Virus record (IMG/VR): IMGVR_UViG_3300037067_009442
Coordinates: 29,721 to 93,720 of that record
DNA from: a virus
Lineage: Duplodnaviria; Heunggongvirae; Uroviricota; Caudoviricetes
Reading direction: 5' to 3' (one strand)
Length of the DNA: 64,000 nucleotides
Part shown: in pieces, positions 1,771-57,869 of the stretch
Layout of the letters: each line of letters starts with the position of its first letter
Numbering within the stretch: position 1 is the stretch's first letter
Notes under the pieces: model-generated
Told to the model about the DNA's origin: nothing
What the model saw: only the letters and a program-made list of their open reading frames with translations
The model's database searches: none
Translations under genes and position numbers: made by a program

Positions 1771-2070
1771 ATGCCCACTGGAATGGACGAACTAATAGTC
1801 AGCATCATCGGCACTCATGAGTCTAGGCAAATCAATACCTTACGAGAGGTTGGGTCTGACCGGATCTTAGAGCTTGCCCCTGTCCGGGGCTCCGAGAGGG
1901 CTTCCATTGACCTGAGAATGCCTTCAGGAGCGACTCTGACTATCCCAGTGGAACCTGGAGCTATGACTCAGATCCTGGATGCCTGGAAGGCTGAGGCCAC
2001 TACAGGGGTTGCGGTACCCTCCCCTGAGGTCCCGCGGGCAACCCGGTTCGAACGCATACTTCAGGACTAG
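1771..2070 (+). CDS. PTRFER-tag family protein
   Basis: Ends RATRFERILQD. Confidence 0.75.
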   Translation: MPTGMDELIVSIIGTHESRQINTLREVGSDRILELAPVRGSERASIDLRMPSGATLTIPVEPGAMTQILDAWKAEATTGVAVPSPEVPRATRFERILQD

Positions 2071-14313: not shown

Positions 14314-15063
14314 GTGATCCTTTCTCTTGAGGTACAGGAGGACACTCTAGTCCTCAAGGGTATTCGGGATGAGTATCGCTACCTAGGGTTCCTAGAGTTT
14401 GAGGGTGATGCTTTCCGAGGAGGGCTATCACCTTACGAGGCTCTTCAGGTAATTGTCTTTCCAAGTAGCACTAGGAAGGTACCCTCACCTAGAATCCTTG
14501 AGTTTCACGATGAAGCCAGAGATGAGTTGAACTCCTGGATCATCTCCAATATTCCCAACCTTGGAGCCCTAAGGGCTGTATCCAAGACTGTCAAGGATGA
14601 ATCACCCAGTACCCTTAAGGGGAAGTCCCTAGGGGAGAAGGCTAGGATGGTTAACGGGAGCTTCCTGACCCTTCCTGTCCCGGGTTGGCTTAGGGTAGGA
14701 CTCAAGCTTCGTGATAAGGCTTCGGGTGAGTTCTTTCGAGTCACTGTGGTGGGGCCCACTAAAATTGAGGTAGTCAACACCTGTAGGAAGATGCGACCTG
14801 CTAGTACCTTCAGGATCGTAGGACTACATCAGACCTTCTATGGTCTCGAGTACTTCGAGTGTGACAGCTGTCGACAAAAACCTGGGTCACCTACTCTCTG
14901 CTCCAATTGCTTAGAGCGTAGAACTGAGCATGGTAGGCTCAATTATTGTGAACTTCCTTCCTTCATTGACAGGGTGTACCTAGGGGGTCTAATCCCAGGG
15001 ACCTCTCGAGAAGAGATAGACGACTTCATCCCTACTCGATTCGAACGTAACGAAGTGGTTTGA
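14314..15063 (+). CDS. PTRFER-tag family protein with zinc finger
   Basis: CDSC...CSNC; ends IPTRFERNEVV. Confidence 0.75.
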   Translation: MILSLEVQEDTLVLKGIRDEYRYLGFLEFEGDAFRGGLSPYEALQVIVFPSSTRKVPSPRILEFHDEARDELNSWIISNIPNLGALRAVSKTVKDESPSTLKGKSLGEKARMVNGSFLTLPVPGWLRVGLKLRDKASGEFFRVTVVGPTKIEVVNTCRKMRPASTFRIVGLHQTFYGLEYFECDSCRQKPGSPTLCSNCLERRTEHGRLNYCELPSFIDRVYLGGLIPGTSREEIDDFIPTRFERNEVV

Positions 15064-18572: not shown

Positions 18573-18923
18573 ATGACTCCAGCTGCCAAGCACTACCTCG
18601 ACTTCCTCTCTCTTAACGGCGAAGATCCTATCTCATTAGAGGGTATCCATAAGTCCATTGAGAGTCGGGTAGATACTCCTGAGGGTCGGGTAGAGTTGCT
18701 CAACCTTTGGCTCGAGTCAACTCACCTAGTGATAATCAACTCCAAGCGAAACCCCGAGACTCTCTTGGATAACATCCAAGAGGTTATTGCCTTCATTGCC
18801 ATCTTCAACCCTGAAGAGATGCCTATCACTCAGATGTGTGAGGTCTGGAAGGTACTCAGGGAGTTAGCGGAGTTGACTTACCCCCGCCCCACTAGATTTG
18901 AACACATCTTGAGAGGTGATTAG
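18573..18923 (+). CDS. PTRFER-tag family protein (triplet member 1)
   Basis: Ends RPTRFEHILRGD. Confidence 0.8.
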   Translation: MTPAAKHYLDFLSLNGEDPISLEGIHKSIESRVDTPEGRVELLNLWLESTHLVIINSKRNPETLLDNIQEVIAFIAIFNPEEMPITQMCEVWKVLRELAELTYPRPTRFEHILRGD

Positions 18924-18926
18924 ATC

Positions 18927-19367
18927 ATGGAGCCTCAATTCGAACGTTACATTGACTGGTACCTTGGTCTACAAGTTAGTGGTCCTACTAGCTTGAGTAG
19001 TAGGACCTTTAGGGAAATCGTTTCCGAGCACATTCAAACCAGAGTGGGGAGGCAGAGGTTAGTACAGAGTCTGCTTAACCCCTCAAGGTTGAGGATTCAA
19101 TCTCACCATCGGAGTGGGTTGAGAGTACAACCGCTTCGAAGGCATATCCTCGAGATTGAGAACTTCATCGCTATTCTCCCTGACAATGAGCGGTTCACTG
19201 CCCCAGTTCAGGAATTGAGAACTATCCTTGTTGAGCTGATAGAATTGCTTGACGTAGACTTCAATAGGCCTCGGGCTGAGTCAGTACCAAGTGATCCTGA
19301 GGTAGAGGAGTACGAAGGTCCCCGCCCAACTCGTTTTGAACGCCTCTTCATGGATGAGGACTCCTGA
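18927..19367 (+). CDS. PTRFER-tag family protein (triplet member 2)
   Basis: Ends RPTRFERLFMDEDS. Confidence 0.8.
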   Translation: MEPQFERYIDWYLGLQVSGPTSLSSRTFREIVSEHIQTRVGRQRLVQSLLNPSRLRIQSHHRSGLRVQPLRRHILEIENFIAILPDNERFTAPVQELRTILVELIELLDVDFNRPRAESVPSDPEVEEYEGPRPTRFERLFMDEDS

Positions 19368-19735
19368 TGGAACCACACCTCCAACAATACCTCGATTGGT
19401 GGGCTGCTTCACACCCTAAGTCACTAAGCGCTGAAGCCACTCTAATCACCATAACCCGAAGCATAGAGACCCCATTGGGAAGGGTCGGTTTGATTAATGC
19501 TTGGGTGAGCGCTGCTCGGTTTGAGATCAATCAAACCGCTCGGCCCCTTGGGAATAAGTACCCTCAATCACTGGTCAACCAAGCAAACCACCTCCTTGGT
19601 ATCCTGACACCTGAGGAGTTACAGAGCCAACCCGCCCTGAACCTACTGGATGCCTACAGGGTTTTGGTAGGGATATGCAATACCTACCCTGATACCAGAC
19701 CTACAAGATTTGAGCACGTCCTAGAGGAACTATGA
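19367..19735 (+). CDS. PTRFER-tag family protein (triplet member 3)
   Basis: Ends RPTRFEHVLEEL. Confidence 0.8.
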   Translation: MEPHLQQYLDWWAASHPKSLSAEATLITITRSIETPLGRVGLINAWVSAARFEINQTARPLGNKYPQSLVNQANHLLGILTPEELQSQPALNLLDAYRVLVGICNTYPDTRPTRFEHVLEEL

Positions 19736-26931: not shown

Positions 26932-28122
26932 ATGACTATTCGTGACCCCTGGAAGGTGGAAGCCCAGACTCAAGCACCCAAAGCCGAACCTCACCGGTGG
27001 TTCCAGCGAATGGCTACTGATTGGTCAAAGAACAAGCAACCTGACCTAGGGCAGTACGCAAGTCACACGACCCCGTCCCAGTGGCTGGGACATACCTTGA
27101 TGAAAGAAGCTATCGAAGGTGGGCCGTCCGTCCACGAAATAGCTATTGAGGGTGACTTTGCCATAAACCCTCTGAAGGTCCTTGATCGCATTGAGACGAT
27201 GTGGCAGCTCCGCCCTATCTATCAGGTTCACGGTCACTCTGTGACCCTGATGTACTCAGGTACGGATCTCATGCTATCCGTGACCATCAATCAATTGAGT
27301 AACTCGGGGAACATCAACTTGGTCACCACTGACCAAAACAAGATCAAGATACTCAACAAGCTGGGGGAGGCCTTCTTCGCTCCAGAGAACCCTCTTGATG
27401 GGTTCATTTATGCTCTAGCCAAGGCCCCTATGGGTGGCTACACCTTGGTCAAAGTAGGATCCGCAGGGGAGCCTATTGAACGAGGAAACTACTCTGAAGA
27501 GGTGATTACAGACTACGATCACATTGTGGCGGATCTGAAGACTGCCAACCCCTGTGGTCGACTCATCATCCTAGCTGGGCCACCTGGATCAGGTAAGACG
27601 TTCCTGGTTCGATCTCTCCTCCAAGAGATCCCAAGGGCTGCCTTCGTCCTAGTACCTGCTCACCTGGTCCAAGACTTGGGTTCACCTGAGCTCCTACCTG
27701 CTCTTGTACAGGTCAGGAGGGATGGCCTCAGTGGGGCTATCGTGCTGGTCATTGAGGACGCGGACAAGGTACTGGTCGAGAGGAAGAGTGGGGACATGAA
27801 TGCCATCTCGGCCCTACTGAACCTCGGGGACGGAATTCTCGGTAGCTCCCTTGACGTAAGGATCCTTGCCACGACCAATGCTAGTGGACTAGAGATGGAT
27901 GCGGCTACTCGAAGACCCGGACGCCTCTGTCGATACATCGAGGTTGGATCTCTATCTGCAGACCAAGCTTCCAAGGTGATCCAGAGGGTTACGAGGAAGT
28001 CCTTCACCTTCAAAGAGGACGCCACCCTTGCAGAGATCTACCGTAAGGCTCGTGATCTTGGGTGGGTCCCACCACCCAAGAAGAGCTCAGATCCGGTTAC
28101 CAAGGGCTTGGCAGTTCTCTAG
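26932..28122 (+). CDS. AAA+ ATPase
   Basis: Walker A GPPGSGKT, Walker B VLVIEDAD, ATTN, RRPGR arginine finger. Confidence 0.9.
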   Translation: MTIRDPWKVEAQTQAPKAEPHRWFQRMATDWSKNKQPDLGQYASHTTPSQWLGHTLMKEAIEGGPSVHEIAIEGDFAINPLKVLDRIETMWQLRPIYQVHGHSVTLMYSGTDLMLSVTINQLSNSGNINLVTTDQNKIKILNKLGEAFFAPENPLDGFIYALAKAPMGGYTLVKVGSAGEPIERGNYSEEVITDYDHIVADLKTANPCGRLIILAGPPGSGKTFLVRSLLQEIPRAAFVLVPAHLVQDLGSPELLPALVQVRRDGLSGAIVLVIEDADKVLVERKSGDMNAISALLNLGDGILGSSLDVRILATTNASGLEMDAATRRPGRLCRYIEVGSLSADQASKVIQRVTRKSFTFKEDATLAEIYRKARDLGWVPPPKKSSDPVTKGLAVL

Positions 28123-28509: not shown

Positions 28510-28683
28510 ATGAAATGCCTATTGCTTTCCTTAGTGCTGCTTGGGCATAACCCAGATAAGTGCCTACCTCACTGTGACTCGACAGTGAAGTCTTGTAGGG
28601 CTTCGTGTGCATCAAAGACCTGGGATGAATGCCATGAGAAGTGTGAACGGGTAGGTCGAGAATGTAGAGATGAGTGCCCTTAG
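28510..28683 (+). CDS. Small cysteine-rich peptide (57 aa, four CxxxC), not in the ORF track
   Basis: MKCLLLSLVLLGHNPDKCLPHCDSTVKSCRASCASKTWDECHEKCERVGRECRDECP; preceded by the CGGTGTA motif. Confidence 0.65.
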   Translation: MKCLLLSLVLLGHNPDKCLPHCDSTVKSCRASCASKTWDECHEKCERVGRECRDECP

Positions 28684-28985
28684 ATCACGTCCTCACGTTC
28701 GAATCTAGTGGGGCGGGGGCCTGCATAACTCACTACCCGGTGATCAAACTGAGAACAAGGCATTGGTTGGAAGGGACTATGTACAACGTATAACCCCTCA
28801 CTACTGTTCTTTCGGATCAAATTGAGCCCAAGCTCCACTCCTGAAGCACAGCGGACTCGATAGTGTATAAGCAATCGGCCAATGGTCCTTTGTGCCTCTT
28901 CTGTCGTTTGGTAGCTTTTATCCTGATACTGGCGCCTGCTAGGGCAGTGCTGACAGTCCTCGCAGGTTAGGGCATCAGGGGGCAT
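28680..28985 (-). CDS. PTRFER-tag family protein, Cys-rich
   Basis: CEDCQHC; ends RPTRFEREDVI. Confidence 0.8.
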   Translation of the reverse strand: MPPDALTCEDCQHCPSRRQYQDKSYQTTEEAQRTIGRLLIHYRVRCASGVELGLNLIRKNSSEGLYVVHSPFQPMPCSQFDHRVVSYAGPRPTRFEREDVI

Positions 28986-30303: not shown

Positions 30304-30618
30304 ATGCCAGCCAAGATCGCTACTGCCGAAGACATTCAGAATGAGATCCGAACTCTTTGGGCAATGACCGAAGAGGAAGTCCCTAGTCGGGAGAAGTTGG
30401 CGGCAGCCCTCAATGATCTTGCAAGTAGGGTTGCGGGTAACCGAAGTGAACTCTCAAAGTGCTTGGATGATATTGCTGACACCGCTAGTAGTGCTTCTCG
30501 TAGTGCTAAGAATCCCAAGCATGGTAAGAAGTTGGTTGAGAGTGCCATCTATACCATGAAGGATTCTATCAGGCAGTTAGAGGGGCTCGTAAGCAGTACT
30601 GATTGGGAAACTGCTTAG
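30304..30618 (+). CDS. Hypothetical protein; N-terminal domain shared with 54845-55186
   Basis: KIATAEDIQNEI...PSREKLAAALNDLASR versus RISTAEDIQAEL...PSRSLIARELRDLAVR. Confidence 0.7.
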   Translation: MPAKIATAEDIQNEIRTLWAMTEEEVPSREKLAAALNDLASRVAGNRSELSKCLDDIADTASSASRSAKNPKHGKKLVESAIYTMKDSIRQLEGLVSSTDWETA

Positions 30619-30929
30619 TACCGGAAGAGCCTACTCTCTTCAAAGATCTGCCCCTCCTCGAAGGGCGGGTCTTGGTCTGACAGGACTAAGAGACTGTCGT
30701 TGGGGATATCTTCCGAAACTCCGATACCCGCCCCCCAAATATCTCCTTTACTATTAGGGTCCCCACCTTCAAGGATTCGTTCAAACCTAGTGGGTCGGTA
30801 GAGGCGGAGGTTATCAAAATTACTCCACACTTGCGTGTAAGTGCGGTTATTCATCCACACTTTAACTACCATGGACCCTTCACTTTCTACTTGAGCAAAG
30901 GCATCACAGAGAATGGTTCCAGTGATCAT
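30615..30929 (-). CDS. Protein with an internal PTRFER motif
   Basis: RPTRFERILEGG followed by a C-terminal extension; start at the ATGA overlap 30929. Confidence 0.65.
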   Translation of the reverse strand: MITGTILCDAFAQVESEGSMVVKVWMNNRTYTQVWSNFDNLRLYRPTRFERILEGGDPNSKGDIWGAGIGVSEDIPNDSLLVLSDQDPPFEEGQIFEESRLFRY

Positions 30930-32035
30930 ACCGAGACCGGAGGAGCTTCGGGGGCAGTAATCCCAAACTTCCACATCCGATCCTCGAAGTCGTAGATCGT
31001 TACCGATACGCTCTCACCTGGGTGGTTTCGGAAAGCCCAAGCCTCAATTTGATGGAAGTACCATCTTGGAGGCTTAGGTTCCCTGACCGTCAGTATAGAC
31101 AGCTTCTGAGGAGTGATCCCCACGCTGAGCTCGATGGATGGCTTCTGCCCCTCGATTAAGTGCATGATGATTTCAATCATCTCTTACTCCACACCTTCTC
31201 AATAAGCCGACGACACCACCCCTTACCACTTCCATTGCAGGAAGGGCACCCTATGCAAACACCGCCTAGGAAGTTACCGTAGTGTCCATAACCCCTGCAA
31301 CGACGACATCTGCCCCAACTCTCACGATCAAGTAGGCCCCTCCAACCCGTTGGTGACTTCCACCAACCAACTTGGAAGTCATCTTTTAGGTGCATGGTGA
31401 CTTCACTTACGGGTAACCCAAGCATGCATCAACCTATGACCTATAGCACCGCCCAGAAGAGCTAATACCATACCCTTAGGTCCGGCGGTGAGGTAACCTA
31501 TTGACCCGTAGACGATGAACCTTACGTAGGTGGCTGGAGTCGAGAACCAAGTTGAGTTCATCCGGTGTGTACTTCTCGTAGGCTCTGTGGGTTCAACTTA
31601 TAGGTAGCTAGGATAGGGACCATGGACTTAATGACTCGCTTCGCCAGTGGGGTGAAGTCAGAGTGAGCCCTTTCAAGGTCATGAGCAGAATTGAGACACT
31701 CAATGGCAGCCTCGAGGTTTTCAGTATCAACAAATTCGATGGCCTTATCCACACAAGTAACCCACTGCCTCCATGTTTCAATGTGTCCCAATTGACGCCA
31801 TTGAATGCACCCAAGAGTACGACTCATGGATAGCATTACATGGACCTCTTCTCCAACTGTCCGAGGTGGATCAAATGGTGCCATTATGCAGATCCCTCAG
31901 GGGTTTCCCTCGAGTTACGGACCTGATGGTACTTCCCTCGTACCCACTGGAAAACTGGCTTCAGGAAAGGCAATCCAAGGGCCAAGTAAAGAGGGAAGTC
32001 ATGGAAAGGGTTACCACAGAAGTGCATGAGTTTTC

Positions 32036-32977
32036 TTACACCGATCCCTTGGCAAGCATGTCTCGGTAGAGTGGGCCAAGAACCCTAGAGACATTCCCCT
32101 TGATGGATTGCTCATTGAGACTGAGTTCAGTCCACTCTCGCTGACAATCCTTAGCAAGGTCAGCGATGATTGCGGTGAGGATACAGGGCATGTCCTTCAT
32201 GGTACCGGTGAGAGCAGTACCACGATCAGTGAGTCGACCGATAGCATTGATGACTCGGCCCTCGGTAACGTACATAGCAACGAAGTCATCCACCGGTGAA
32301 GGCCCTCGCTCAACCTTCTCCTTAGGGGCAGTAGCCTTCTCAGCAAACTTGGCAGACTTATGCTTGCAAATGAGCCAATCGCCAAATACATCTCGGAAGA
32401 GAGGGGTGGACTGGATTACAACGCCTTCGGCGATGTTGTCCTCTCCAAACCCATTGAGAAGGCCTTCGGTACTGGGCTTCTCCAAAAGAGCATCAAAGTT
32501 GGCCTTAGTTGGTTCACCTCGCCACACCTCATGAACTCGAGGTAGCTTCATCTTGTCAGCTACATCACAGAAGAGATCATAGGTGAGGAAGTTTGGACCC
32601 GGCATGATTCCGAAGGTCCGAAAGAGGGGAGTCTGCCCGTTGCTGTATCGAACCCCCTTGGCTTTGATGCCGGGTCCGTATGCCTCCCCGAACACCGTAG
32701 TGTCGTTGAAGCCATAGGACAACAGCGTCTCCATCATGGTACCTAGGAGCTCCTCTTGCCCTCGGAACCAGTTGAGCATACTGCCTAGAGGGAAGTCCTG
32801 CCCGGTGCCATACTCGACTTCTCGAGTGCCAAATCCGATTTCACTGATCTTCTTGATCCCAAGTGGGAAGAAAAGCCTGAAATTGCTGCCGTGGAGCTTC
32901 TCGGTAGCCACGACCTCCTTGACGGCATAGATGGAGGGGCAGTCTTCAAGTTGGACGATTGACGGGTACTTTTGCAT
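32036..32977 (-). CDS. Rnl2-family ATP-dependent RNA ligase
   Basis: EKLHGSNF (motif I), FGE (III), EGVVI (IV), KHKSAKFAEK (V), C-terminal YVTEGRVINAI. Confidence 0.88.
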   Translation of the reverse strand: MQKYPSIVQLEDCPSIYAVKEVVATEKLHGSNFRLFFPLGIKKISEIGFGTREVEYGTGQDFPLGSMLNWFRGQEELLGTMMETLLSYGFNDTTVFGEAYGPGIKAKGVRYSNGQTPLFRTFGIMPGPNFLTYDLFCDVADKMKLPRVHEVWRGEPTKANFDALLEKPSTEGLLNGFGEDNIAEGVVIQSTPLFRDVFGDWLICKHKSAKFAEKATAPKEKVERGPSPVDDFVAMYVTEGRVINAIGRLTDRGTALTGTMKDMPCILTAIIADLAKDCQREWTELSLNEQSIKGNVSRVLGPLYRDMLAKGSV

Positions 32978-32980
32978 GGT

Positions 32981-33715
32981 CTACTTGGAACAGATCGTAC
33001 AAGAAGGGTCTTTAGTCAAGCGCATTGTATGAGTGGTCATCTCGAGGGCATCAAAGATCAGCATGCGACCTACTAAAGGGTCCCCAAATCCATGTAGGAC
33101 CTTGAGAGCCTCAGTTGCTTGGATGGCTCCAATGATGCCCGGGACGGTACCGAGGACCCCTCGAAGGGGCCTCTTCTTTTCTGGAGGCTCATTTGGATAG
33201 AGGCATCGATAGCAAGGACTCCCTCTGAAGACAGTGACCTGCCCATCCAGAGATCCCGCAGCCCCATGAACGAGAGGGATCTTTCGGGCCATGCATTCAT
33301 CATTGAGGAGGTACCGGGTCGGGTAGTTGTCACAGCAATCAATAACTACATCCCATTCAACCTCATCAAAGATCCGATCCTTAGAGGTGGCGTCCAACAT
33401 CACCGGGTATCTTCGGTACAATGGGTCGGGGTTGAGTCGACAGAGCCGATCCAAAGCTTGGCTGACCTTATGCTGACCAATGCCAATGGTCGAGTAGAGG
33501 ACCTGCCTCTGAAGGTTGGACAGGCTGACCTCATCGTGGTCAACAAGACCTAGTGTTCCTACCCCCTGAGCGGCTAGGTAGAGTGCCACTGGGGACCCTA
33601 GGCCACCAACCCCTACGATGAGGACTCGGCTCCTGAGGAGCTTCTCTTGGCCCTCCTGACCTATCTCATCTAGGAGCAGGTTCCGTTCGTACCGGGTGAC
33701 TTGTTCAGGGGTCAT
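32981..33715 (-). CDS. ThiF/MoeB (E1-like) adenylyltransferase
   Basis: VGVGGLGS, VDHDEVSLSNLQRQ, DCCDNYPTR, PCYRC, GVLG, C-terminal CTIC. Confidence 0.92.
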   Translation of the reverse strand: MTPEQVTRYERNLLLDEIGQEGQEKLLRSRVLIVGVGGLGSPVALYLAAQGVGTLGLVDHDEVSLSNLQRQVLYSTIGIGQHKVSQALDRLCRLNPDPLYRRYPVMLDATSKDRIFDEVEWDVVIDCCDNYPTRYLLNDECMARKIPLVHGAAGSLDGQVTVFRGSPCYRCLYPNEPPEKKRPLRGVLGTVPGIIGAIQATEALKVLHGFGDPLVGRMLIFDALEMTTHTMRLTKDPSCTICSK

Positions 33716-34396: not shown

Positions 34397-34702
34397 TCAG
34401 ATCACGTCCTCTCGCTCAAATCGGGTAGGTATCGGTGGTTCAGTCGATGGCTTTATCGGCTTACGAGGACTGAGAGTATCGACGATCTGGTAGGTGTAGT
34501 CAACCAGATTGTACTCCTTGAAGTGAGCTCTAAGGTATACAAAAGCGTCAGCTACCTCACTAAGAGTGACCTCCCTATCTCGAAGTAGCACGGCCATGAA
34601 GGACTCTAAAAGCACAGGCATCGGACTTGGGTCATCCGTAATAACTCGAACATCCTTGAGTTTCTTACCTTCAGTGAGGGTAAACTCAAAGTCGAGTCTC
34701 AT
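34397..34702 (-). CDS. PTRFER-tag family protein
   Basis: Ends IPTRFEREDVI. Confidence 0.85.
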   Translation of the reverse strand: MRLDFEFTLTEGKKLKDVRVITDDPSPMPVLLESFMAVLLRDREVTLSEVADAFVYLRAHFKEYNLVDYTYQIVDTLSPRKPIKPSTEPPIPTRFEREDVI

Positions 34703-34984
34703 TCAGATCACGTCCTCTCGCTCAAATCGGGTAGGGTAGGTCCCTGAAGGTAACCTTGCCGCTTCTTCGAGGGTATCGACGATCTGAACGGATACAGCTT
34801 CATTAGGGTAACGACTCTGAAGGCCCTTGAGGATAGTAGTTGAGTTCTTACTATTCAACCTTTTACCTTCAAGGTATTCTCTAATCTGCTTCTCATAGGT
34901 AGGGTTGTTGGTGGTACCAGTTACTCGAACGTCCCTAAGGGATCCATACCTTCCTTGGCGTAGGAGCTCTACGAAGACTGGCAC
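34703..34984 (-). CDS. PTRFER-tag family protein
   Basis: Ends YPTRFEREDVI. Confidence 0.85.
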   Translation of the reverse strand: MPVFVELLRQGRYGSLRDVRVTGTTNNPTYEKQIREYLEGKRLNSKNSTTILKGLQSRYPNEAVSVQIVDTLEEAARLPSGTYPTRFEREDVI

Positions 34985-35410
34985 CTAGACTACATCCTCT
35001 CGCTCGAATCGAGTAGGGTAGGTGCTTAGCAATCCCGTTGATGCAAAGGTTTGCATGATCAGATCTCGATAGGGTAAGTCACTGCCCGTAACGCTTCGAT
35101 GCTCCTCACAGTAGTAGCTGAGGGAGGTAGGAGGTATCTTGACTATCGTGAGTGATAAGGTTGTAACCAAACCTTTTTGAAGGAGGTTGTCTCGCCACTC
35201 AGTGTTCCAGCGTTGAAGGGCGTCTACTTCATCTTGCTCGCTTCTAGACTGAGCAACCCACGTAAGACGAGAGAGGTCTCCACAGGTGACCTTGTACAGA
35301 TTGCAAAGCACGGGTGCAGGTAATGAGGTAGTTGCTAACTTACCGCAGACCCAGCACCGAGGAGCCCACTTCTTGAGCTCTGCATAAGCATCCATGTCAA
35401 AGCGATTCAT
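34985..35410 (-). CDS. PTRFER-tag family protein, zinc-finger-like
   Basis: CWVC...CEEH; ends YPTRFEREDVV. Confidence 0.85.
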   Translation of the reverse strand: MNRFDMDAYAELKKWAPRCWVCGKLATTSLPAPVLCNLYKVTCGDLSRLTWVAQSRSEQDEVDALQRWNTEWRDNLLQKGLVTTLSLTIVKIPPTSLSYYCEEHRSVTGSDLPYRDLIMQTFASTGLLSTYPTRFEREDVV

Positions 35411-36117
35411 ACTACCTCCTCCCTCTCAAACCGAGTCCGGAGTTGGATAGGAGGATCACTAGATGCAACAGGGGTTACCCGCAACGACTCAATGATCTCC
35501 CAGGGATCCCCCATCTGTAGGCACCCGATAGGGTCAGTGATACCCCTACGTTGAAAAATCAGCATCCCAGTTGGGTGTAGGAAACCCTGGAGCCCACACC
35601 TAAATAACCCATAACTCTCACCGCCATCTTCAATACTTCCTTGGGTGGATGAGAACCGATCCCGACCGAGTTTTCGAACAGAGGCGAATTCCTCAGGAGA
35701 TAAGCAGATAGCACGGTAATCAAGCCCCACTAACTTATCGTAGATACCCTCAACTTGTTGATTACTCCTAGGGGGGTTGTTGAACCTAACCACAGAAGGT
35801 GGTTGCATCCTCCCCTGCGGTTCAGGTAGAGCGAATGCCCCCTCGCTCATCATTCGAGCAATCTCTCTCCGACCGCCAGGAGATCGGAATACCTGAAGGT
35901 CCCCTGTTATAGTGTTCCTTGCTGCTACAACACCACAAAACCAGAGAAAGTCATCATCCTCAACGGTATGGCACTGCTCGCAATAGAACCCAATCCTCCC
36001 CATGTGGTACCCACTACCGGCACCAGCACCCTCATCAAGCAGGATCGTATGACCTGTTGCGATAGCATGGTCATTGATTGCCAGAAGCATCTGACTAACG
36101 TTTCGGAACTCCAACAT
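35407..36117 (-). CDS. PTRFER-tag family protein
   Basis: Ends LRTRFEREEVV; start moved to ATG 36117 to avoid overlap; N-domain shared with 40169-40513. Confidence 0.8.
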   Translation of the reverse strand: MLEFRNVSQMLLAINDHAIATGHTILLDEGAGAGSGYHMGRIGFYCEQCHTVEDDDFLWFCGVVAARNTITGDLQVFRSPGGRREIARMMSEGAFALPEPQGRMQPPSVVRFNNPPRSNQQVEGIYDKLVGLDYRAICLSPEEFASVRKLGRDRFSSTQGSIEDGGESYGLFRCGLQGFLHPTGMLIFQRRGITDPIGCLQMGDPWEIIESLRVTPVASSDPPIQLRTRFEREEVV

Positions 36118-36119
36118 GA

Positions 36120-36623
36120 TTAGACGACGTCCTCTCGCTCGAATCGAGTAGGCCGAATAATCTCGGTACTTAGGCTCGAGTTTGGCAAGTAAGGTAACCC
36201 TCTCATTTGGCACTCAATTGAAGTCAGTAGTTTTATCTCACCTGGAGTACCACTAGGGTACTTAAATCGAGGAGTTAACAGTTGAGGTGCGAGCAGTAGA
36301 CTCACCTTCAAAGTAGACTCACTTTCGAGCCGAGGGGTTCCCCGGATCACTCCGTGAAGTATCCAAGTAGGCTCCCGATTAGTCAACCTCTTCATTCGAT
36401 GGTAAAGCCGTAGGTACAGAGGGGCCCTAGGCTCAAGTGGGTCGTCACTCAAACAGAAAGTTGAAGGGCATACCCAGGAACGGAGGGATGTCTCATCAGT
36501 GATATCTATCCCGTTCGAGTGGAAGTATAGGGTTCGAGTACAGTCCGGAAGCCTACGGAAGAAGGGTAGGCAGTCTAGGTCAGTCTGCCACCAAGTGACT
36601 GGACATGGACTGTACAGTACCAT
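36120..36623 (-). CDS. PTRFER-tag family protein (SPxPVTWW subfamily)
   Basis: SPCPVTWW; ends RPTRFEREDVV. Confidence 0.85.
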   Translation of the reverse strand: MVLYSPCPVTWWQTDLDCLPFFRRLPDCTRTLYFHSNGIDITDETSLRSWVCPSTFCLSDDPLEPRAPLYLRLYHRMKRLTNREPTWILHGVIRGTPRLESESTLKVSLLLAPQLLTPRFKYPSGTPGEIKLLTSIECQMRGLPYLPNSSLSTEIIRPTRFEREDVV

Positions 36624-37171
36624 CAGATGACGTCCTCTCGCTCGAATCGAGTAGACCGATGGATCTCAGGCTCAGGTTCCAAGGGGATTGGCCATACCGG
36701 TAAATTAAGGTTCAGGCACTCCTCAGTGGAAAGAAGTGAACCCTCGGTAGGGTAGTAGAACTTAGTCGATAGGAGGATCGGTGCTAGGAGAAGACCCACC
36801 TTTACTACACGGAGATCTCTAGTCAATGATGGGTACGGTACTCCAATTACCCCGTGCATCACCCAAGATGGGTGATGCTTAGACATCATCAACATCCGAC
36901 GGTAAAGTTTAATGCCTATCCCTCTTGTCAAGGTCAACTCAAAAAGACTAGGGCTTACGTCTAGGATCCCGGAGTACTCATAGAGCTCGTTATAGCCATC
37001 AGTTGTGACCTCCTGAGCTACTTGTACCCAACTAGAAGGGCGATGACTACACAGAGGAATATCTCTAACCCTCAGAGTCAAGACGCTTATGTCCCTTGGC
37101 TTAAAGAAACTAGGTACTTGAGCGGGCTTCAGCTGCCACCAAGTTACCGGGCAAGGGCTGCTTAGAGTCAT
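36623..37171 (-). CDS. PTRFER-tag family protein (SPxPVTWW subfamily)
   Basis: Ends RSTRFEREDVI. Confidence 0.85.
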   Translation of the reverse strand: MTLSSPCPVTWWQLKPAQVPSFFKPRDISVLTLRVRDIPLCSHRPSSWVQVAQEVTTDGYNELYEYSGILDVSPSLFELTLTRGIGIKLYRRMLMMSKHHPSWVMHGVIGVPYPSLTRDLRVVKVGLLLAPILLSTKFYYPTEGSLLSTEECLNLNLPVWPIPLEPEPEIHRSTRFEREDVI

Positions 37172-37647
37172 CAGATGACGTCCTCTCGCTCGAACCGAGT
37201 AGGGATTGTCAACCAGTAAGGGAGGTTAACTCTGGCGCACTCCCCATTGGAGAGCCTCTCTATCTCCTTAGTCTCCCAAGTGGACTTAGGCTCTAGCACT
37301 AAGTCAAAAGGAGCGTGGAAGAGACTAACCGTTAGTGCCTTAGTTGGGTGAGAGTTGAGCGCCTCTTCCCTGTCTTGCAGTATTCCATGAAGCTTCCAAT
37401 TGGGCCTCATCTCAGTCATGGTTCGGATCCAAGTGACTAAGAGGCTCAGTTCATGAGGGTAGATCCTCAGTAAGGGGATGGGGACATATGTGGCACTGAG
37501 AGGGTTACTAATCCGAAAGGTCCCATCATCACCATCAAATAGATACCCACAGGGAGTCTCTCGTTCCTTAGTGGTGTATGGGCTGTAGTAATAGGGGATC
37601 CTCCACCATGTGACTGGGTATGGACTGAGGAGAGTAGATTCAGTCAT
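37171..37647 (-). CDS. PTRFER-tag family protein (SPxPVTWW subfamily)
   Basis: Ends IPTRFEREDVI. Confidence 0.85.
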   Translation of the reverse strand: MTESTLLSPYPVTWWRIPYYYSPYTTKERETPCGYLFDGDDGTFRISNPLSATYVPIPLLRIYPHELSLLVTWIRTMTEMRPNWKLHGILQDREEALNSHPTKALTVSLFHAPFDLVLEPKSTWETKEIERLSNGECARVNLPYWLTIPTRFEREDVI

Positions 37648-37961
37648 ACGACATCCTCTCGGTCAAACCTCGAGACTCTAGGGGGCTCAGGAAGGGGCTC
37701 AGGTTCTTTTTTCCGCACGTCTATCGTGCTCTTGAACTCAGTACAGAGTGAAGGTATTGATACCCTCCACTCTGTACCAAAGTAGCTTTCCATGAGGTAA
37801 GCTACTACAACCGCGACCTGAAGGGCTATGAGAGGCTCGACCGAATCGATTAGATCGATCAGGTCGTTATAGGTGCCTCCCAGGTGATTAACCCCTGTTA
37901 CGGAATCTACCGTGACATGGTTTTCATCACTAACCCCTAGGATAACCTCAATCATGCCCAA
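37644..37961 (-). CDS. PTRFER-tag family protein
   Basis: Ends RVSRFDREDVV. Confidence 0.8.
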   Translation of the reverse strand: MGMIEVILGVSDENHVTVDSVTGVNHLGGTYNDLIDLIDSVEPLIALQVAVVVAYLMESYFGTEWRVSIPSLCTEFKSTIDVRKKEPEPLPEPPRVSRFDREDVV

Positions 37962-38087
37962 GTACTTTCGAGGTTGGACACCCCTCGTGCGTTACCCATC
38001 GCCGAACTGAATTACGTCGACAAAGAATGTGCAAGGCAAGAAGAGCAGCAACCAAGTACAGCAAGGTAAGGGTTCGAGGTCTGAACA

Positions 38088-38852
38088 CTACTCGGCCTCT
38101 TGTTCTTGAATGTCCATCAAATTGATCAGAAGTTGACCGTAAGGTGTGCTTCGAGGAAGCTTCCGGTCTACATGGATCCTTCTTCGAGTAGCCACTACAG
38201 GCTCCTTCGTCTTTGGATTGAACCCAGGCTTTTGGTAGTCCTCCCAATAGAGCCCGACTCCTCGCCGCTGCCACAAGGGGACTTCATTGAAGTTGATCCC
38301 ACGGACGAACAGCAAGTCATTCTTCTGGGAGAAGCTCTTGCCTTTGAGCTCTTGAGTAGCCTCCGTGGGGCTGTTACCCCACTCTCGAAGCTTCCAATAG
38401 CACCAGCCGTTCAAGCAGCATCGAGCAGCATCCGACTGCCTCCAATAGAAGTAGTCGAGCACCTCCTTCTGAGTAGGGCCAACCCAGACCCGGCTATCAA
38501 AGTGAGCAGCAGAGCCGAGCTCGATGGAGAAGACCGAGCTTGCAATGCCCGCCGAGATAGAGACGATCTTCTCAACCTCTCGCCCGAAGAGATCCGTATC
38601 CTTGGGTAGTAGGATTGAGATCTCGTCGCTCTCTGTGAAGGCATAGATCCCACCCAACTCGACCATTAGAGTCGAAGCAGTCTTGACCATGTACGAGTGA
38701 AACAGAGGGTCAAACGGATGCTCAAAGCCACGAGTGAGCTTTGTGAAGCTCCGACCATCGACTCGAACCACCGGGTAGGCCCCTGGTAGGATCTTCATCG
38801 AGTGGTAGCACTCGAGTTCCCGCATCCGCTCTTCAAGCTTGTCAGTTTTCAC
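38088..38852 (-). CDS. thg1: tRNA(His) guanylyltransferase Thg1-like 3'-5' polymerase
   Basis: VVRVDGRSF, TESDEIS, FDSR, YFYWRQSDA, GINFNEVPLWQRRG. Confidence 0.93.
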   Translation of the reverse strand: MKTDKLEERMRELECYHSMKILPGAYPVVRVDGRSFTKLTRGFEHPFDPLFHSYMVKTASTLMVELGGIYAFTESDEISILLPKDTDLFGREVEKIVSISAGIASSVFSIELGSAAHFDSRVWVGPTQKEVLDYFYWRQSDAARCCLNGWCYWKLREWGNSPTEATQELKGKSFSQKNDLLFVRGINFNEVPLWQRRGVGLYWEDYQKPGFNPKTKEPVVATRRRIHVDRKLPRSTPYGQLLINLMDIQEQEAE

Positions 38853-39180
38853 GAAGGGGCTACCCCTCTCGGGTTGATCACACCAAGGCCTACCATCTCT
38901 GCCTTGTAGATGGACTGAGGGTCCCCTTCTGGGTTGGGTGTCTCGAACTCGAGGAGGTAACTCTCCTCCTCTTTGTCACCTACCTTGCGGAAGGCGGAAT
39001 AACCAACCCAATCATCTCCCTGGGTCGCCTGTAGGACAACGAAACCCTCAATGAGTAACTCTCGAGCCCTCACTTGGGCTCCTTCTACGTTGTTGAACTT
39101 CTCGATGATAGGGTATGCTTGGCTCATAAGCCCTATTACAAGCACGTCCCTACCCTAGTAGTCAAGGAGCTAGTAGTTTA

Positions 39181-39648
39181 CTAACTTGACCGAGATACAG
39201 CTTGAACCGAGAAGGTACCTTCCGGGGTCAGGGTGACCTCGTAGAGCTCGTCATACCCCTCAGACCATGAAGGGTAGACTAGACGCTTGATCGCCCCGAA
39301 GATAGCAACATGGGGCACGCAGGCATGACCCACTCGAGTGGCATTCCTTTTGAGGCAATCATCTACCCGAGAGCGGAAGAAGTAGCCTTTCACAGTGGCA
39401 CCGTACTCCCGAGCTATTAGAATGATCTCTACTCGGCTAGCCACCTCAACGTTAGTGTTGTCGACAACTACCGATTGACCACAGATCAAACCATCCCGGA
39501 TGAGTAACTCCTGCCGCTTCCGCCGGTTCTTGTTGTTCCGGAAATGATCCTTGCTGACTACCCTGTGAGTAGAGGGAAATCGCTGACTACAGAACGTGGT
39601 CTTGCCCGACGCCTGCAGCCCAGAGAGAATTACCACCTCCAGGGTCAT
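39181..39648 (-). CDS. Polynucleotide kinase-like P-loop protein (AAA_33)
   Basis: GLQASGKTT, VSKD, VVVDNTN, CLKRNATR. Confidence 0.85.
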   Translation of the reverse strand: MTLEVVILSGLQASGKTTFCSQRFPSTHRVVSKDHFRNNKNRRKRQELLIRDGLICGQSVVVDNTNVEVASRVEIILIAREYGATVKGYFFRSRVDDCLKRNATRVGHACVPHVAIFGAIKRLVYPSWSEGYDELYEVTLTPEGTFSVQAVSRSS

Positions 39649-39869
39649 ACTAACCCCTCCCGCTCAAATCGAGTAGGAGGTAGCCTCCTGAAGCTATAAC
39701 AGGATTCATAGATTGGAATGGAGGGGTTCATGCTTCGAAAGACTACTGTATCACCACATTTGGTGGACCAACATCCGAAATACCGAGGGTGCCCAAGTTT
39801 ACAGGGCGGAGCCATCCCGGTACCCCTTCTAGTGTCAGTCGGATGGTGGGTGCAGTCGTTACAGCCCAC
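39645..39869 (-). CDS. PTRFER-tag family protein, Cys-rich
   Basis: CNDC; ends PPTRFEREGLV. Confidence 0.8.
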   Translation of the reverse strand: MGCNDCTHHPTDTRRGTGMAPPCKLGHPRYFGCWSTKCGDTVVFRSMNPSIPIYESCYSFRRLPPTRFEREGLV

Positions 39870-40166
39870 CTAGATGACGTCCTCCCGCTCGAAGCGAGTA
39901 GGGGGATCAGATTCGGGACCTGGAGTCTCTACCCTCATACTATCGTCACTTGAGAGGATAGTGTCCCCAATGGTGATAGAGACTACCTCATTCTCATAGT
40001 CTTGGAAGTAGTCAACAAGGTCCTGACGAGTAGAAGAGGTGACTGGTTTCCCAACGAACCTCTGACGGATGTGGAATTCATGAATCTCATCGCTAGGGGT
40101 GCCCCTAACACGAATCCCCCAGATAGTCTTGTTACTCGTCCGGGTAACCACTTCAATGTTGATCAT
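39870..40166 (-). CDS. PTRFER-tag family protein
   Basis: Ends PPTRFEREDVI. Confidence 0.85.
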   Translation of the reverse strand: MINIEVVTRTSNKTIWGIRVRGTPSDEIHEFHIRQRFVGKPVTSSTRQDLVDYFQDYENEVVSITIGDTILSSDDSMRVETPGPESDPPTRFEREDVI

Positions 40167-40168
40167 GA

Positions 40169-40513
40169 CTAGATGACATCCTCCCGCTCGAAGCGAGACA
40201 ACCGAACAATGTACTCAGGAGCTAGTGAGCAAGTACCTAACGTCAACTCTTGAGCTAACGCTACCCTACTTTCAACTGAGATGAACTTCATTCGAACAGG
40301 GTACCTAACAGGGACTCTCCTGACGGCACTTACCAGGCAGAACCAGTGAGGAGTTGTAACCTCCCTCGCTTGACTTTCGAAGGGGTCACATTGAGTACAC
40401 GTGAAGCCAATGTGACCCCAGGTATACCGATCATCCGAGGTAATACGATGTCCTGTCTCCAGAGCATGCTTTTGGATTACATCAAGCATCCGAATAACAT
40501 CAGTGTATTGCAC
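40169..40513 (-). CDS. PTRFER-tag family protein
   Basis: Ends RLSRFEREDVI. Confidence 0.85.
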   Translation of the reverse strand: MQYTDVIRMLDVIQKHALETGHRITSDDRYTWGHIGFTCTQCDPFESQAREVTTPHWFCLVSAVRRVPVRYPVRMKFISVESRVALAQELTLGTCSLAPEYIVRLSRFEREDVI

Positions 40514-41064
40514 CTAGATAACCTCCTCTCTCGAGTTGAAGGTAGACGTTGATCACGGAGTGAGATCCACGCCATCCTTCTCGAGGAGGACGAATAGCCC
40601 ATGGAATCCCCGGTGTAAAGTGGCCTCATCATACCAATCATTAAAGAACTTTTTGAGTTGGTCTTGCGCAGTTGGAAGGTCTGAGATCTGAACTGCAATA
40701 GCCCAAAGGGTGGGACGTACCTTATCCGGGTGGATCACTATTGGACAGTGGAAGTACTCATCCAACTTGAGGACCACTTCTTTTCCGACCTCTCGGAGGT
40801 GACAAGGGAGCTTCAAGAGTTCACTGTCCAAGTCGAGAGGAGGGTAGACCCATTCACCGTTGATGGAGAGATCTGTGTAGTAGAATGGCTGCCCACAGGC
40901 GACGCAATTATCATAGCGAGCCAACCGCAGGCTAATCGACGTTCGATGGATCAGGAGCAACCCATCAGAGCAAGAAGGACACTTGGACTTATACGGGCTC
41001 TCGTCTACTCTACTCATAGAGGCATGAGAGATTCGAATTGGGTCAGGCTCTTTAGTCGGATCAG

Positions 41065-41562
41065 TCATAGGACATCCTCTCGTTCAAAGCGAGTAGGTCG
41101 ATGAATTTCAGGTGGCGGTGGGGTCCAATTCCAGTATGGGAGGTGAAAGCCCCGGCACTCCTCAACAGTGAACTCTTCCGCTACCACCTCACGTCCAAAC
41201 GAAGAGAATCGAGGTTCGAGTTTCTTTGGGTTGAGCATTAAGCCCCACGTTATGGAGTAGGACTCTGGCCCTGTAATTGAATCGGATACACTGACTTCCT
41301 CAATTACCCCATGAAAGTGACCAGTCTTGACTTCGGCAAGTTCTAGTAGATCTTGCATTTGCTTACGGATTCTGGCCGTTAGAGAGAGTCCAAGGTACCC
41401 GGCATCGTCACTTGTCATAGAGAAAATTTGGATTACATAGTACCGAGGGTTGAGGGGTACTGGGTGGTCTTGGATGAGGATCGATTCCACGAAGCGAGGT
41501 GTAGTAGTTAATCCCACCTTCCACCAAGTGACCGGAATAGGGCTTTGGTAGGTCTCGATCAC
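41065..41562 (-). CDS. PTRFER-tag family protein (SPxPVTWW subfamily)
   Basis: SPIPVTWW; ends RPTRFEREDVL. Confidence 0.85.
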   Translation of the reverse strand: MIETYQSPIPVTWWKVGLTTTPRFVESILIQDHPVPLNPRYYVIQIFSMTSDDAGYLGLSLTARIRKQMQDLLELAEVKTGHFHGVIEEVSVSDSITGPESYSITWGLMLNPKKLEPRFSSFGREVVAEEFTVEECRGFHLPYWNWTPPPPEIHRPTRFEREDVL

Positions 41563-44910: not shown

Positions 44911-44944
44911 GATCTATCCTACGTACGAGAACCCAACTTCTCAA
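44911..44944 (-). promoter_or_regulatory. Class-1 promoter, gene 44419-44910
   Basis: Exact motif. Confidence 0.8.
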
Positions 44945-44951
44945 CCAGAAA

Positions 44952-45879
44952 TCACTTGGACTCGCGAGAAACGATGTACCGGTGAATGTCGGCCCCGTGG
45001 CAACCTGAGTACTTGCTCAGAAACTCCTGAGCCCTCTCCAAACTAATGGGGTTCTGGGTAAGATGCTCCTCATAGAGGCTAGCAAGGACTTCCTCAGTGG
45101 CCCAGATGTAGTCACGGCAGTCATCAAATAGGTAACTGCTCTCCCAGTAGGCCACCCGGCCTTCACCCAGATCGATCTTGGTGATACTGACGTTGGCGCC
45201 GAACGAATTCTTGAATTGACCCACAGGGGTTTGAGTTCCTGTAGGGATGGATAGAGAGTCGCTACGAGTCAAGCCCTCAAGAGGGGCTCGTGCAGACTTC
45301 TCAGCGGACTCCTTGGCGGCCTTCTCAGCGGACTCCTTGGACTCTTTGGACTCTGGCTGCAGTATCCTTGGCAATCAGGGCGGCCGCTTCGGCTTCTGTC
45401 GCATCTCGATACCAGCAAGTTGTGAAGTAGCCCTCATCCATAGGTAAGCTAAAGGAGAGACCGTCTTCCTTGCAGTAACCTGTCTTCCAACCTACAACCA
45501 CGACGGCGGTTCGAGTCCCACGAACCCGAAGCCAGACTACATGCCCGACCTCATCACCTTGATCACCCTCACGTGAGGACGAGTAAGTACCCTCTTGGGC
45601 ACCTTCCTGCTTACCAGACCGTCTGCTGCTTCGACGGGTAGAGGTGCTCCTGGAAGAGGTACTACGAGCCTTAGGGGCGGGTGCCGGGGCTGACTGCTCA
45701 GTGGCAATGGTGGTGTAGCAGAAGCCGTCAGCACCCTTCCAGACGATGGTCCCGACAACCTCACGCTTAGTTTCCCCAGACCTCTTGGTGACTGTAACTG
45801 TCGTACCAGACACCAGATTGACCCCAGAAAGGCCCCAGGTCCCGTCCCTTAGTTGCTTGTATCCGATTGTGCTTGCCAT
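44952..45879 (-). pseudogene. Probable single gene split by a frameshift near 45355
   Basis: ...AKDTAA continues as (K)ESKESKESAEK in another frame. Confidence 0.55.
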
Positions 45880-45913
45880 GATCTATCCTACGTATGAGGG
45901 CTCCGATTCTCAA
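45880..45913 (-). promoter_or_regulatory. Class-1 promoter, ATG 45879
   Basis: Exact motif; identical to the copy at 46306. Confidence 0.8.
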
Positions 45914-45915
45914 CT

Positions 45916-46119
45916 AAATACTTGGTGGCCAGTACCTGTGTCAATGGGGCGAACCCCTCCGTCAATACCAACCTACGCAGCCAAGCCTACGAGACCTCCG
46001 GTCCCAGGTGCTTTTTCCCGAGAGGCCAACCTCGGTTACTTTCATCGGGGTGCAACCCGACTAGCCCACGGCCACTGGGCGGGGTGCCATCAACTTGATA
46101 GGTAATCTCTGTTGATGAC
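45916..46119. ncRNA. Candidate multi-hairpin structured RNA
   Basis: GGGG-cgaa-CCCC, CCGAG..CTCGG, TCGGG..CCCGA, GCCCA..TGGGC, CATCAAC..GTTGATG within an intergenic gap. Confidence 0.4.
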
Positions 46120-46305
46120 TTACTCTGAACCTAGGGGGCGAACATCCTCAAAGTCCTTCAGTAGGATTTGAGCCGCAGCAACATCCAAGAAGTCGAACCC
46201 AGATACATCCTGGTCAAAACTCAAGAGGACGGCTATCCTCTCAATTCTCTCTCTGAACTCAAGGTCATGGGTCGTCTTTACGTGCCCCTTGGCTTCAGTG
46301 TTCAT

Positions 46306-46339
46306 GATCTATCCTACGTATGAGGGCTCCGATTCTCAA
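46306..46339 (-). promoter_or_regulatory. Class-1 promoter, gene 46120-46305
   Basis: Exact motif. Confidence 0.8.
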
Positions 46340-56328: not shown

Positions 56329-57849
56329 CCCTGGATGATGAAGCCTACCAGATGGCTTTGCTACAAGAAACTAAGGGCAAAAGACGGCGAGCTCTGGATG
56401 ATGAAGCCTACCAGATGGCTTTGCTACTCGACACCATCATTGTCGCTTCATGGACGTCTCTGGATGATGAAGCCTACCAGATGGCTTTGCTACTCGTCCG
56501 AGGTATAACAGTCCACTAGGACTAGACCCTTCTCTGGATCACGAAGCCTTCCAGAAGGCTTTGCTACAAAAGTTGACCTTGCAATCTACACTGTTCCTGC
56601 ACACTCTGGGATACGAAGCCTTCCAGAAGGCCTTGCTACTATCCGTCGACAAATTAACTCAAATCAAGGCATTTGCCCTCTGGATGACGAAGCCTACCAG
56701 ATGGCTTTGCTACATGGTCACTGAACGTCGAAGGGTTGTTGTGACGCACTCTGGGATACGAAGCCTACCAGATGGCTTTACTACTTGGACTATCTTGGTC
56801 TCCAGATCGAGCCTTAGCCCTCTGGGATACGAAGCCTACCAGATGGCTTTGCTACGAAAGATACCCCATGACCAATACATTGACCGACAGCTCTGGATCA
56901 CGAAGCCTACCAGATGGCTTTGCTACCGACCTAATCAAGCGCTTCGATAACCTGCTCCCTCTGGATGATGAAGCCTACCAGATGGCTTTGCTACGTCGTC
57001 GTGTCGCCCGACACGAGAGCCCTGTACATCTCTGGAATACGAAGCCTACCAGATGGCTTTGCTACGCCAGGAGGTCCGTAGTCGTCGAGTTAGATTTTGC
57101 CTCTGGAATACGAAGCCTACCAGACGGCTTTGCTACCCGGCCCCGTCAACACGGTAGTGAGCGGCGACAGTCTCTGGAATACGAAGCCTACCAGACGGCT
57201 TTGCTACCTCGAGGCTGGAGCTTAACGGAGTCGATGATTCCCCTCTGGGATACGAAGCCTACCAGATGGCTTTGCTACACGAACAATCAAACCGAAGTAG
57301 TCGTCTCTCTGGAATACAAAGCCTACCAGATGGCCTTGATACTCGACGCCATCATTGTCGCTTCATGGACGTCTCTGGAATACGAAGCCTACCAGATGGC
57401 TTTGCTACCGCGAGGTCGAGCCTAACGTTCGCTCAGGTTGTCCCACTCTGGAATACGAAGCCTACCAGATGGCTTTGCTACGGGGGGGAACCCCGAGAAA
57501 ACAAGGAGAAGAAGCAATCTCTGGATCACGAAGCCTACCAGATGGCTTTGCTACTGCACCTCCAAGCCCACCTGGACCAACCCGATTCGAGCGCTCTGGA
57601 ATACGAAGCCTACCAGACGGCTTTGCTACCGCTCCAACCACGCAGGGATGGGCTGGGCTCCCGATCTCTCTGGATCACGAAGCCTACCAGATGGCTTTGC
57701 TACGTTGTGGGTGGTGAGCAAGAGGGTACCGCCGAGGAGTGCTCTGGATCACGAAGCCTACCAGATGGCTTTGCTACGGACTATGGAATCCACGAGCGAT
57801 GGATCGGCGTCCACTCTGGATGACGAAGCCTACCAGATGGCTTTGCTAC
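56329..57849 (-). CRISPR. CRISPR array, 22 repeats of 36 nt and 21 spacers of 27-39 nt
   Basis: Plus-strand repeat CTCTGG(ATGATG/ATCACG/AATACG/GATACG/ATGACG)AAGCCTACCAGATGGCTTTGCTAC with an AAGCC/GGCTT hairpin. Minus orientation is inferred from the adjacent cas gene and the GT-start of the reverse complement (GTAGCAAAGCC...CCAGAG). Confidence 0.97.
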
Positions 57850-57869
57850 TTGGACTGTCAAACATCAGT

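Follow-up and report, generated by a model that had tools for sequence, protein, structure and literature searches.

Common terminal peptides that are read by one partner protein are a known principle. In bacteriophage T4, a capsid targeting sequence (CTS) is located at the N-terminus of the four proteins IPI, IPII, IPIII and Alt, from which it is cleaved, and is phage-specific. The T4 proteins gp33, gp55 and gp43 dock on the clamp gp45, and the acidic tail of SSB is a further example of hub docking via a terminal motif. The ankyrin-PRANC/F-box adaptors of poxviruses combine many variable baits with a common handle for a degradation machine, the eukaryotic ubiquitin system. For the ClpX adaptor SspB, the tail was described to bind the zinc-binding domain (ZBD) of ClpX (PMC8138137; PDB 2DS7 according to the same paper). 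Furthermore, immunity that senses phage capsids is documented, as Avs7, Avs8, Avs10 and Dsr1 recognize the major capsid protein (MCP; PMC13581612). Here, a phage DNA stretch of 64,000 nucleotides (the window) was analyzed, in which many small proteins carry one common peptide tag. No description of this motif was found in the papers and family libraries searched, in agreement with an earlier reading made from the sequence alone (the sequence-only reading). The window comprises positions 29721-93720 of a linear virus record of 228,619 bp, and the coordinates of open reading frames (ORFs) given below are those of the window. With an estimated completeness of 45%, the record represents the accessory half of a huge phage. 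A total of 152 proteins of the complete related genome G002 (512,571 bp) match it with a median identity of 47%, and the structural and replication half of G002 has no counterpart in it.

The motif was identified in all 18 ORFs for which a C-terminal PTRFEREDV(I/V) tag had been listed (Table 1), including the eight tagged genes lying head-to-tail at 34.4-38.0 kb. A 19th copy, overlooked before, is located internally in ORF 30615-30974. In the 229-kb fragment, about 58 of about 450 called ORFs are tagged (about one gene in eight), compared to 0-1 in a reversed-sequence control, and the tag is limited to accessory genes. The core motif is P-[TS]-R-F-[ED]-R-hydrophobic or, more generally, P-[TS]-x-[FW]-[ED]-R-hydrophobic. 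Two types of endings were distinguished. In class I, found for 14 of the 18 ORFs, the motif starts exactly 10 residues before the stop and the end is E/D-x-V-I/V/L, whereas the class II ending (ORFs 1771, 18573, 18927 and 19367) is I/V/L-L-acidic and variable in length. Since both tails swap within single protein families, they can be regarded as one signal. The core consists of seven residues; the EDVI ending can be missing, and the C-terminus need not be free. Thus the tag is indeed present at ORF ends, but neither the full string nor the free C-terminus is the signal. In about 85-90% of the copies the position is terminal; the last residues vary, and conserved internal copies (in a kinase-like loop) as well as doubled N-terminal copies exist.

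Selection on the peptide, deduced before from mostly synonymous variation, was confirmed by a search at the DNA level and by orthologue comparison. Without any translation, 16 sites with at most 3 mismatches were detected outside the seed cluster, and 14 of these are in frame at an ORF end. Their mismatches were distributed over codon positions 3, 1 and 2 as 30, 12 and 2, so the equal conservation at all codon positions that would indicate a DNA element was not observed. The codon changes comprised 33 synonymous and 4 non-synonymous ones. At up to 4 mismatches, 27 sites were found compared to 0-8 for a shuffled consensus. The invariant Arg is encoded by all six codons and Ser by both codon blocks. 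For 21 orthologue pairs of G002 and the related phage G003, the amino acid identity was 98% in the six-residue core, 56% in the linker and 70% in the body, whereas the synonymous identity in the core (0.48) was not above that in the body (0.56). A DNA or RNA element, such as a recombination site or a ribosome-binding site, that merely resembles a peptide is thereby refuted as the main function and is extremely improbable. In the array at 34-41 kb the class I ending does double as the Shine-Dalgarno sequence/ribosome-binding site for the gene that follows, and synonymous codons are shared to a greater extent between neighbouring tags (0.50) than between distant tags (0.37; permutation p 5e-4). 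However, class I tails are also kept on convergent genes, and the local codon sharing is accounted for by duplication or conversion, which therefore helps the tag to spread locally.

A Pro-rich linker ahead of the tag was likewise found, with a Pro content of 13% compared to 6% in the bodies. In the model of ORF 18927, a confident helical bundle (residues 1-112) is followed by a linker of low confidence and by the tag as a short helix (136-142) of modest confidence. The predicted layout of a tagged protein is hence a folded body, a flexible linker and a short helix. A Foldseek search of this model against the PDB and a search of the ESM Atlas gave no match, and the single-sequence model of ORF 37171 (pLDDT 37) was uninformative.

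A motif search extended the tag beyond the 18 listed ORFs, across the genome and to several related phages of 400-510 kb. G002 has about 64 tagged genes, nearly none of them in its structural half, and G003 has 35; G339, G340, G347 and G348 are likewise rich in the tag. It is rare or nearly absent in other relatives, with about 5 copies in G343 and 0-1 in G341, G345 and G352 by the patterns used. In G348 many proteins end directly after R-I or R-V, and the minimal unit is therefore seven residues. In G348 and G339, the T/S can be replaced by N or D. In G350, the Trp form [PK]-T-x-W-[ED]-R-[LI]-L replaces the tag on about 30 genes, capsid fragments included, and such a genome-wide switch would be expected if all copies co-adapt to one pocket. 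When whole databases were searched with a profile of the tag, only this clade was returned, but these searches were underpowered.

Within GTDB, the strict tag was detected in a single genome, an 8-Mb metagenome-assembled genome (MAG) of a 'delta proteobacterium', presumably belonging to the Polyangia; its class has genomes of up to 15 Mb. In this MAG, genes of three small prophage-like islands and a 33-codon frame of a Mu-like prophage terminate in the identical tag, as do two genes of a soil temperate-phage contig. For the tagged bodies of the islands and the temperate phage, which include a ribbon-helix-helix-like protein (identified by eye), no homologue was found in the huge phages, and the tagged elements as a whole have no gene in common. 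A host housekeeping protein with the tag was not found in G001 or four relatives, and a survey of 300 members of the class and of 40 relatives did not detect the strict class I tag. The simplest reading of this sharing appears to be a reader in the host cell, the alternative being satellites that mimic the huge-phage system. The host of the phage is probably deltaproteobacterial and myxobacteria-like. The closest relative of the AAA ATPase of the window is found in Myxococcus phage Mx1. Beside the tagged genes of a MAG island, two homologues (about 40%) of the huge-phage core gene at G002 483440 are encoded (L059:12473-13387 and L164:5461-6270).

The bodies of the 18 tagged ORFs belong to several families (about 11), as assumed before, yet they are not all unrelated: part of them are paralogous and many are fragments of capsid protein. 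The MCP of G002 was assigned to phrog_2522 (E 3e-52), and more than 590 IMG/VR loci encode the MCP of the clade. Homology to this MCP family of the HK97 fold was strong for ORFs 30615, 18927, 36120, 37171 and 41065, moderate for 18573, 19367 and 36623, and weak for 40169. The tagged bodies of the window match separate MCP blocks (residues 5-41, 50-119, 156-237 and, weakly, 247-269), and the best E-value of the reversed-MCP control was 4e-3. An MCP match of at least 8 bits was obtained for 10 of 157 tagged and 4 of 1,074 untagged proteins and for none of the reversed ones (Fisher p 6e-7). Among 93 core families, tagged fragments were found only for MCP and RecA. Tagged MCP fragments are kept in G339, G348 and, with the Trp form, in G350. 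In ORF 30615 the tag lies in register of the MCP helix 201-211, where the MCP itself has no R-F pair; this is a single hint at a possible origin of the tag. Otherwise, library matches of tagged bodies are rare (Tad2-like, RecA-like, kinase-like, radical SAM and RlaP). The CxxC motif is enriched (27 of 59 tagged vs. 50 of 311), and several tagged proteins have transmembrane-like segments. Terminase fragments, called by eye in a tagged protein of G002, were not confirmed. Among the best relatives the MCP is 85-100% identical (L053:3574-4440) compared to a median of 42-56% for shared proteins, which is an unusual conservation.

The proposal of a portable docking or sorting signal was supported by these results. 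As a conserved, position-tolerant short helix on a flexible linker that switches in concert across a genome, the tag is very probably a short linear docking motif that is bound, in all its copies, by one common partner. As the same letters recur in small unrelated elements, this partner is somewhat more readily placed in the host cell independently of the huge phage, either as a host protein or as one with host and phage copies. We tentatively propose that the tagged genes form an early-expressed library of baits with a handle. The body of each tagged protein would bind a target and the handle would tether it to a hub, where it would be removed or sequestered. The capsid pieces could act as decoys that divert capsid-sensing immune proteins, or could poison the head of a rival phage; the known MCP-sensing immunity and Tad2 sponges give a reason for such decoys, and one tagged body is Tad2-like. 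The RecA-like paralogue and the many Zn-finger-like domains could be further baits. Three promoter-like sites of the sigma70 type upstream of the array suggest early expression.

The hub would be an AAA+ unfoldase/protease, with the tagged proteins acting as adaptors of the SspB type. ClpX is ranked first because of the SspB-type architecture and the presence of ClpX with ZBD in phages and the MAG, although this step of the argument is weak. Tagged proteins share with SspB/RcdA-type adaptors a folded, putatively target-binding body, a flexible Pro-rich linker and a short terminal motif. ClpX with ZBD was found in 13 of 20 relatives, in all five complete ones and also in G002 and the MAG, but is absent from the 45%-complete fragment; a ClpX in both phages and the MAG would explain the lineage variation as well as the sharing with prophages. 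In contrast to the single SspB-type adaptor, about 60 unrelated bodies per genome carry a tag with different letters, whose binding to ClpX is a proposal, and no Pfam or PHROG match to SspB/RcdA was detected in body or tail among about 200 tagged proteins. Co-folding of the tag with the ZBD dimer of the phage ClpX (score 0.02) speaks neither for nor against binding. In addition to ClpX, one of which contains an intein (G002), the actin-like volactin and GroEL are encoded in G002 (277071-279446, 370212-371231 and 451267-452913).

Several points weigh against this proposal. About three quarters of the tagged bodies are without assignable function, and no reader protein was identified. Relatives in which tags are few or missing (G341, G343, G345 and G352) likewise encode ClpX, and the tag letters presumably do not match the SspB tail. 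Most capsid matches in the window rest on a family profile and not on a single sequence, the family matching the C-terminal MCP part is weak (P 13-36%), and fragments with only 25-50% identity to an MCP that is >90% conserved are unusual for close decoys. The islands may also be parasites that imitate a system encoded by the phage, and the host assignment is indirect. In its full form, the bait-and-handle proposal would describe huge phages of myxobacteria-like hosts with about 60 such proteins, whose baits catch immune sensors or rival-phage proteins and whose seven-residue handle leads to a single host machine, probably an AAA+ protease. Such a system, in which unrelated prophages employ the handle as well, would be a counterpart of viral F-box adaptor families in a bacterial virus; in this full form the proposal is unlikely to hold. 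The likeness to the poxvirus adaptors is a functional analogy of variable baits with a common handle; there, the handle is a whole domain instead of a seven-residue motif, and no homology exists.

The alternatives differ in what is thought to read the tag. As a virion-loading signal similar to the T4 CTS, it would direct tagged proteins into the head for injection with the DNA. This is unlikely, though it leads the other explanations: the tags are on small proteins, capsid fragments might co-assemble, the lineage-wide switch fits a phage-encoded pocket, and anti-defence cargo would presumably be most useful at injection. Like the CTS, one short peptide is found on unrelated phage proteins, some of them anti-defence. 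Unlike the cleaved N-terminal leader, however, the tag is mostly C-terminal, occurs on 8-13% of the genes and on membrane-type proteins with their transmembrane-like segments, and is common to unrelated prophages. It is also found on a kinase-like loop and on the ribbon-helix-helix-like protein of an unrelated island. The sigma70-type promoters point to early expression, and a different N-terminal motif, never found on tagged proteins, is a better head-cargo candidate. Ranked below virion loading, and doubtful, is a reader encoded by the huge phage (the AAA 26932 family, a vWA protein, volactin or the phage ClpX), with the islands imitating the tag in order to profit from this reader or to disturb it. 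Immediately ahead of the AAA gene, a tagged gene is found in G002, G003, G339, G348 (for both copies) and G350; the tag-poor G343 is without the vWA protein; and in one island a homologue of a huge-phage core gene adjoins tagged genes. But the AAA adjacency is largely one syntenic event that fails in the window and in G343, the AAA was not found in the complete G351, the vWA protein is present in the tag-poor G341, G345 and G352, and all tagged elements lack a common gene. The presence of neither vWA nor AAA tracks the tag. None of the reader proteins proposed in the sequence-only reading was shown to act as such; the AAA ATPase stays a candidate on gene order only.

Conjugation and proteolysis were suggested before, but conjugation by ThiF and a strict C-end degron are disfavoured by the seven-residue core, by proteins that end right after it and by the conserved internal and N-terminal copies. 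Fixed last residues and a free carboxyl end, as in C-end degrons and conjugated tags of the ssrA, Pup or ThiS-like kind, are not seen. A plain degron, i.e., a self-destruct timer that clears early proteins and chiefly capsid pieces poisoning the phage's own assembly, would agree with the prevailing terminal position, the flexible linker and ClpX being a core gene. It is quite unlikely, as the ends vary freely, many are acidic, some copies are internal or N-terminal, and acidic C-ends presumably block ClpX C-degrons in most cases. Improbable to a higher degree is that the tag itself is a weapon or a modification site with bodies of secondary importance, either as a competitive inhibitor of a host interaction or as a Thr/Arg phosphosite read by FHA-like domains. 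T/S and R are near-invariant, the tag works from any position, and myxobacteria are presumably rich in Ser/Thr kinases. On the other hand, N or D takes the place of T/S in G348 and G339, which would suit a helix N-cap better than a phosphosite, and 60 copies on conserved bodies exceed the need of an inhibitor. A mimicry of ribosomal protein S10 (PDB match E 0.1) was dropped, since S10 of the likely host is without the motif. Compartment import, a further suggestion, found no support; tubulin was not found in five complete relatives, and chimallin was not searched. Clamp-binding and acidic C-terminal tails also bring several clients to one hub via a terminal motif, but the clients here are orphan accessory proteins instead of replication or transcription factors, and the motif is different.

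New in this case are the proof at codon level, the switch between Phe and Trp, the occurrence of the tag in unrelated prophages and the controlled enrichment of capsid fragments; a capsid decoy with a shared handle was not found in the paper searches. If one partner reads the tag, a single pull-down would give a common pathway to 8-13% of the genes in a large uncultured phage clade, and the tag would be a sequence marker for candidate counter-defence proteins among orphans. The tagged capsid pieces allow a direct test of phage decoys against capsid-sensing immunity, the lineages with Phe and those with Trp offer a natural control of specificity, and the portable handle could serve as a tool.

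Table 1. Tagged ORFs and further features. Positions refer to the window unless another sequence is named.
Feature	Position	Strand	Remarks
Tagged ORF, 99 aa, class II	1771..2070	+	tag 2038-2067
Tagged ORF, up to 249 aa, class I	14314..15063	+	tag 15031-15060
Tagged ORF, class II, family matching MCP 8-41	18573..18923	+	HHalign P 63%, E 7e-5
Tagged ORF, class II, MCP 5-39 segment in helical bundle	18927..19367	+	blastp E 3e-4, HMM 15.6 bits, HHalign P 95%
Tagged ORF, class II, MCP N-terminal family	19367..19735	+	HHalign P 66%, E 6e-5
AAA ATPase, candidate reader (gene order in relatives only)	26932..28122	+	Pfam AAA
Tagged ORF, class I, Cys-rich body, convergent with neighbour	28680..28985	-	
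Collinear MCP 156-237 fragment, internal tag 30765-30794	30615..30974	-	HHalign P 98%, E 1e-12; HMM alignment
Tagged ORF, class I	34397..34702	-	tag 34400-34429
Tagged ORF, class I, paralogue of 39870	34703..34984	-	
Tagged ORF, class I	34985..35410	-	relatives elsewhere have class II tails
Tagged ORF, class I, family of 40169	35407..36213	-	MCP match of the ORF itself not significant, P 2%; longest frame probably begins upstream of the true start
Tagged ORF, class I, family matching MCP 50-119	36120..36623	-	HHalign P 94%, E 9e-8
Tagged ORF, class I, MCP 50-119 family	36623..37171	-	HHalign P 77%, E 2e-5
Tagged ORF, class I, MCP 50-97 family	37171..37647	-	HHalign P 96%, E 6e-9
Tagged ORF, class I variant (Ser, Asp)	37644..37961	-	
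Tagged ORF, class I variant, Cys-rich	39645..39869	-	
Tagged ORF, class I, paralogue of 34703	39870..40166	-	
Tagged ORF, class I, family weakly matching MCP 247-269	40169..40513	-	HHalign P 31%, E 5e-4
Tagged ORF, class I, MCP 50-119 family	41065..41562	-	HHalign P 93%, E 4e-7
Three identical sigma70-type promoter-like sites upstream of minus-strand run holding the array	44916..46339	-	consensus matches only
CRISPR spacer reading as Pro-rich linker and tag core	57555..57593	+	
Second, N-terminal tag	window 25516-26166; genome 15327, 16619, 102057, 103040, 132774; 13 genes in G002; L101:4169		
Third, N-terminal motif	genome 119379, 128088, 211740; about 12 genes in G002		

A CRISPR array of 22 repeats (36 nt) adjoins a gene for a Cas12m of 656 amino acids (PDB match E 1e-45) on the minus strand (56329-57861 and 57949-59919); phage Cas12m was reported earlier (bioRxiv 10.64898/2026.09.14.751636). 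For the spacers of the array, no target was found in the genomes compared. One spacer encodes a linker and the tag core and was therefore probably acquired from a tagged gene of a related phage. Its protospacer was not found, the best match in the genomes compared being 26 of 39 positions, and L342 (20 of 39) was rejected as a chance match.

Further common peptides were identified. A second tag, D-I-E-x-[FY]-W-[ED] followed by R-P, is located at the N-terminus of other orphan proteins, never together with the C-terminal tag, and is present in the soil temperate phage too. A third N-terminal motif, [RS]-V-[AT]-x-R-[YF], is found on larger proteins, many of them encoded near structural genes, and never on tagged proteins; it is a candidate head-cargo signal. 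In G350, about 10 genes at 159820-194829 have another common C-terminal block, Q-[ED]-E-I-T-x-A-I. The tagged array of the window is interleaved with untagged genes for an RNA ligase, a ThiF-like protein and a predicted kinase (32036-33715 and 38088-39648), among which an untagged Thg1-like gene was also recognized by eye. Two IS605 TnpB genes are located at 3857-5113 and 13077-14294.

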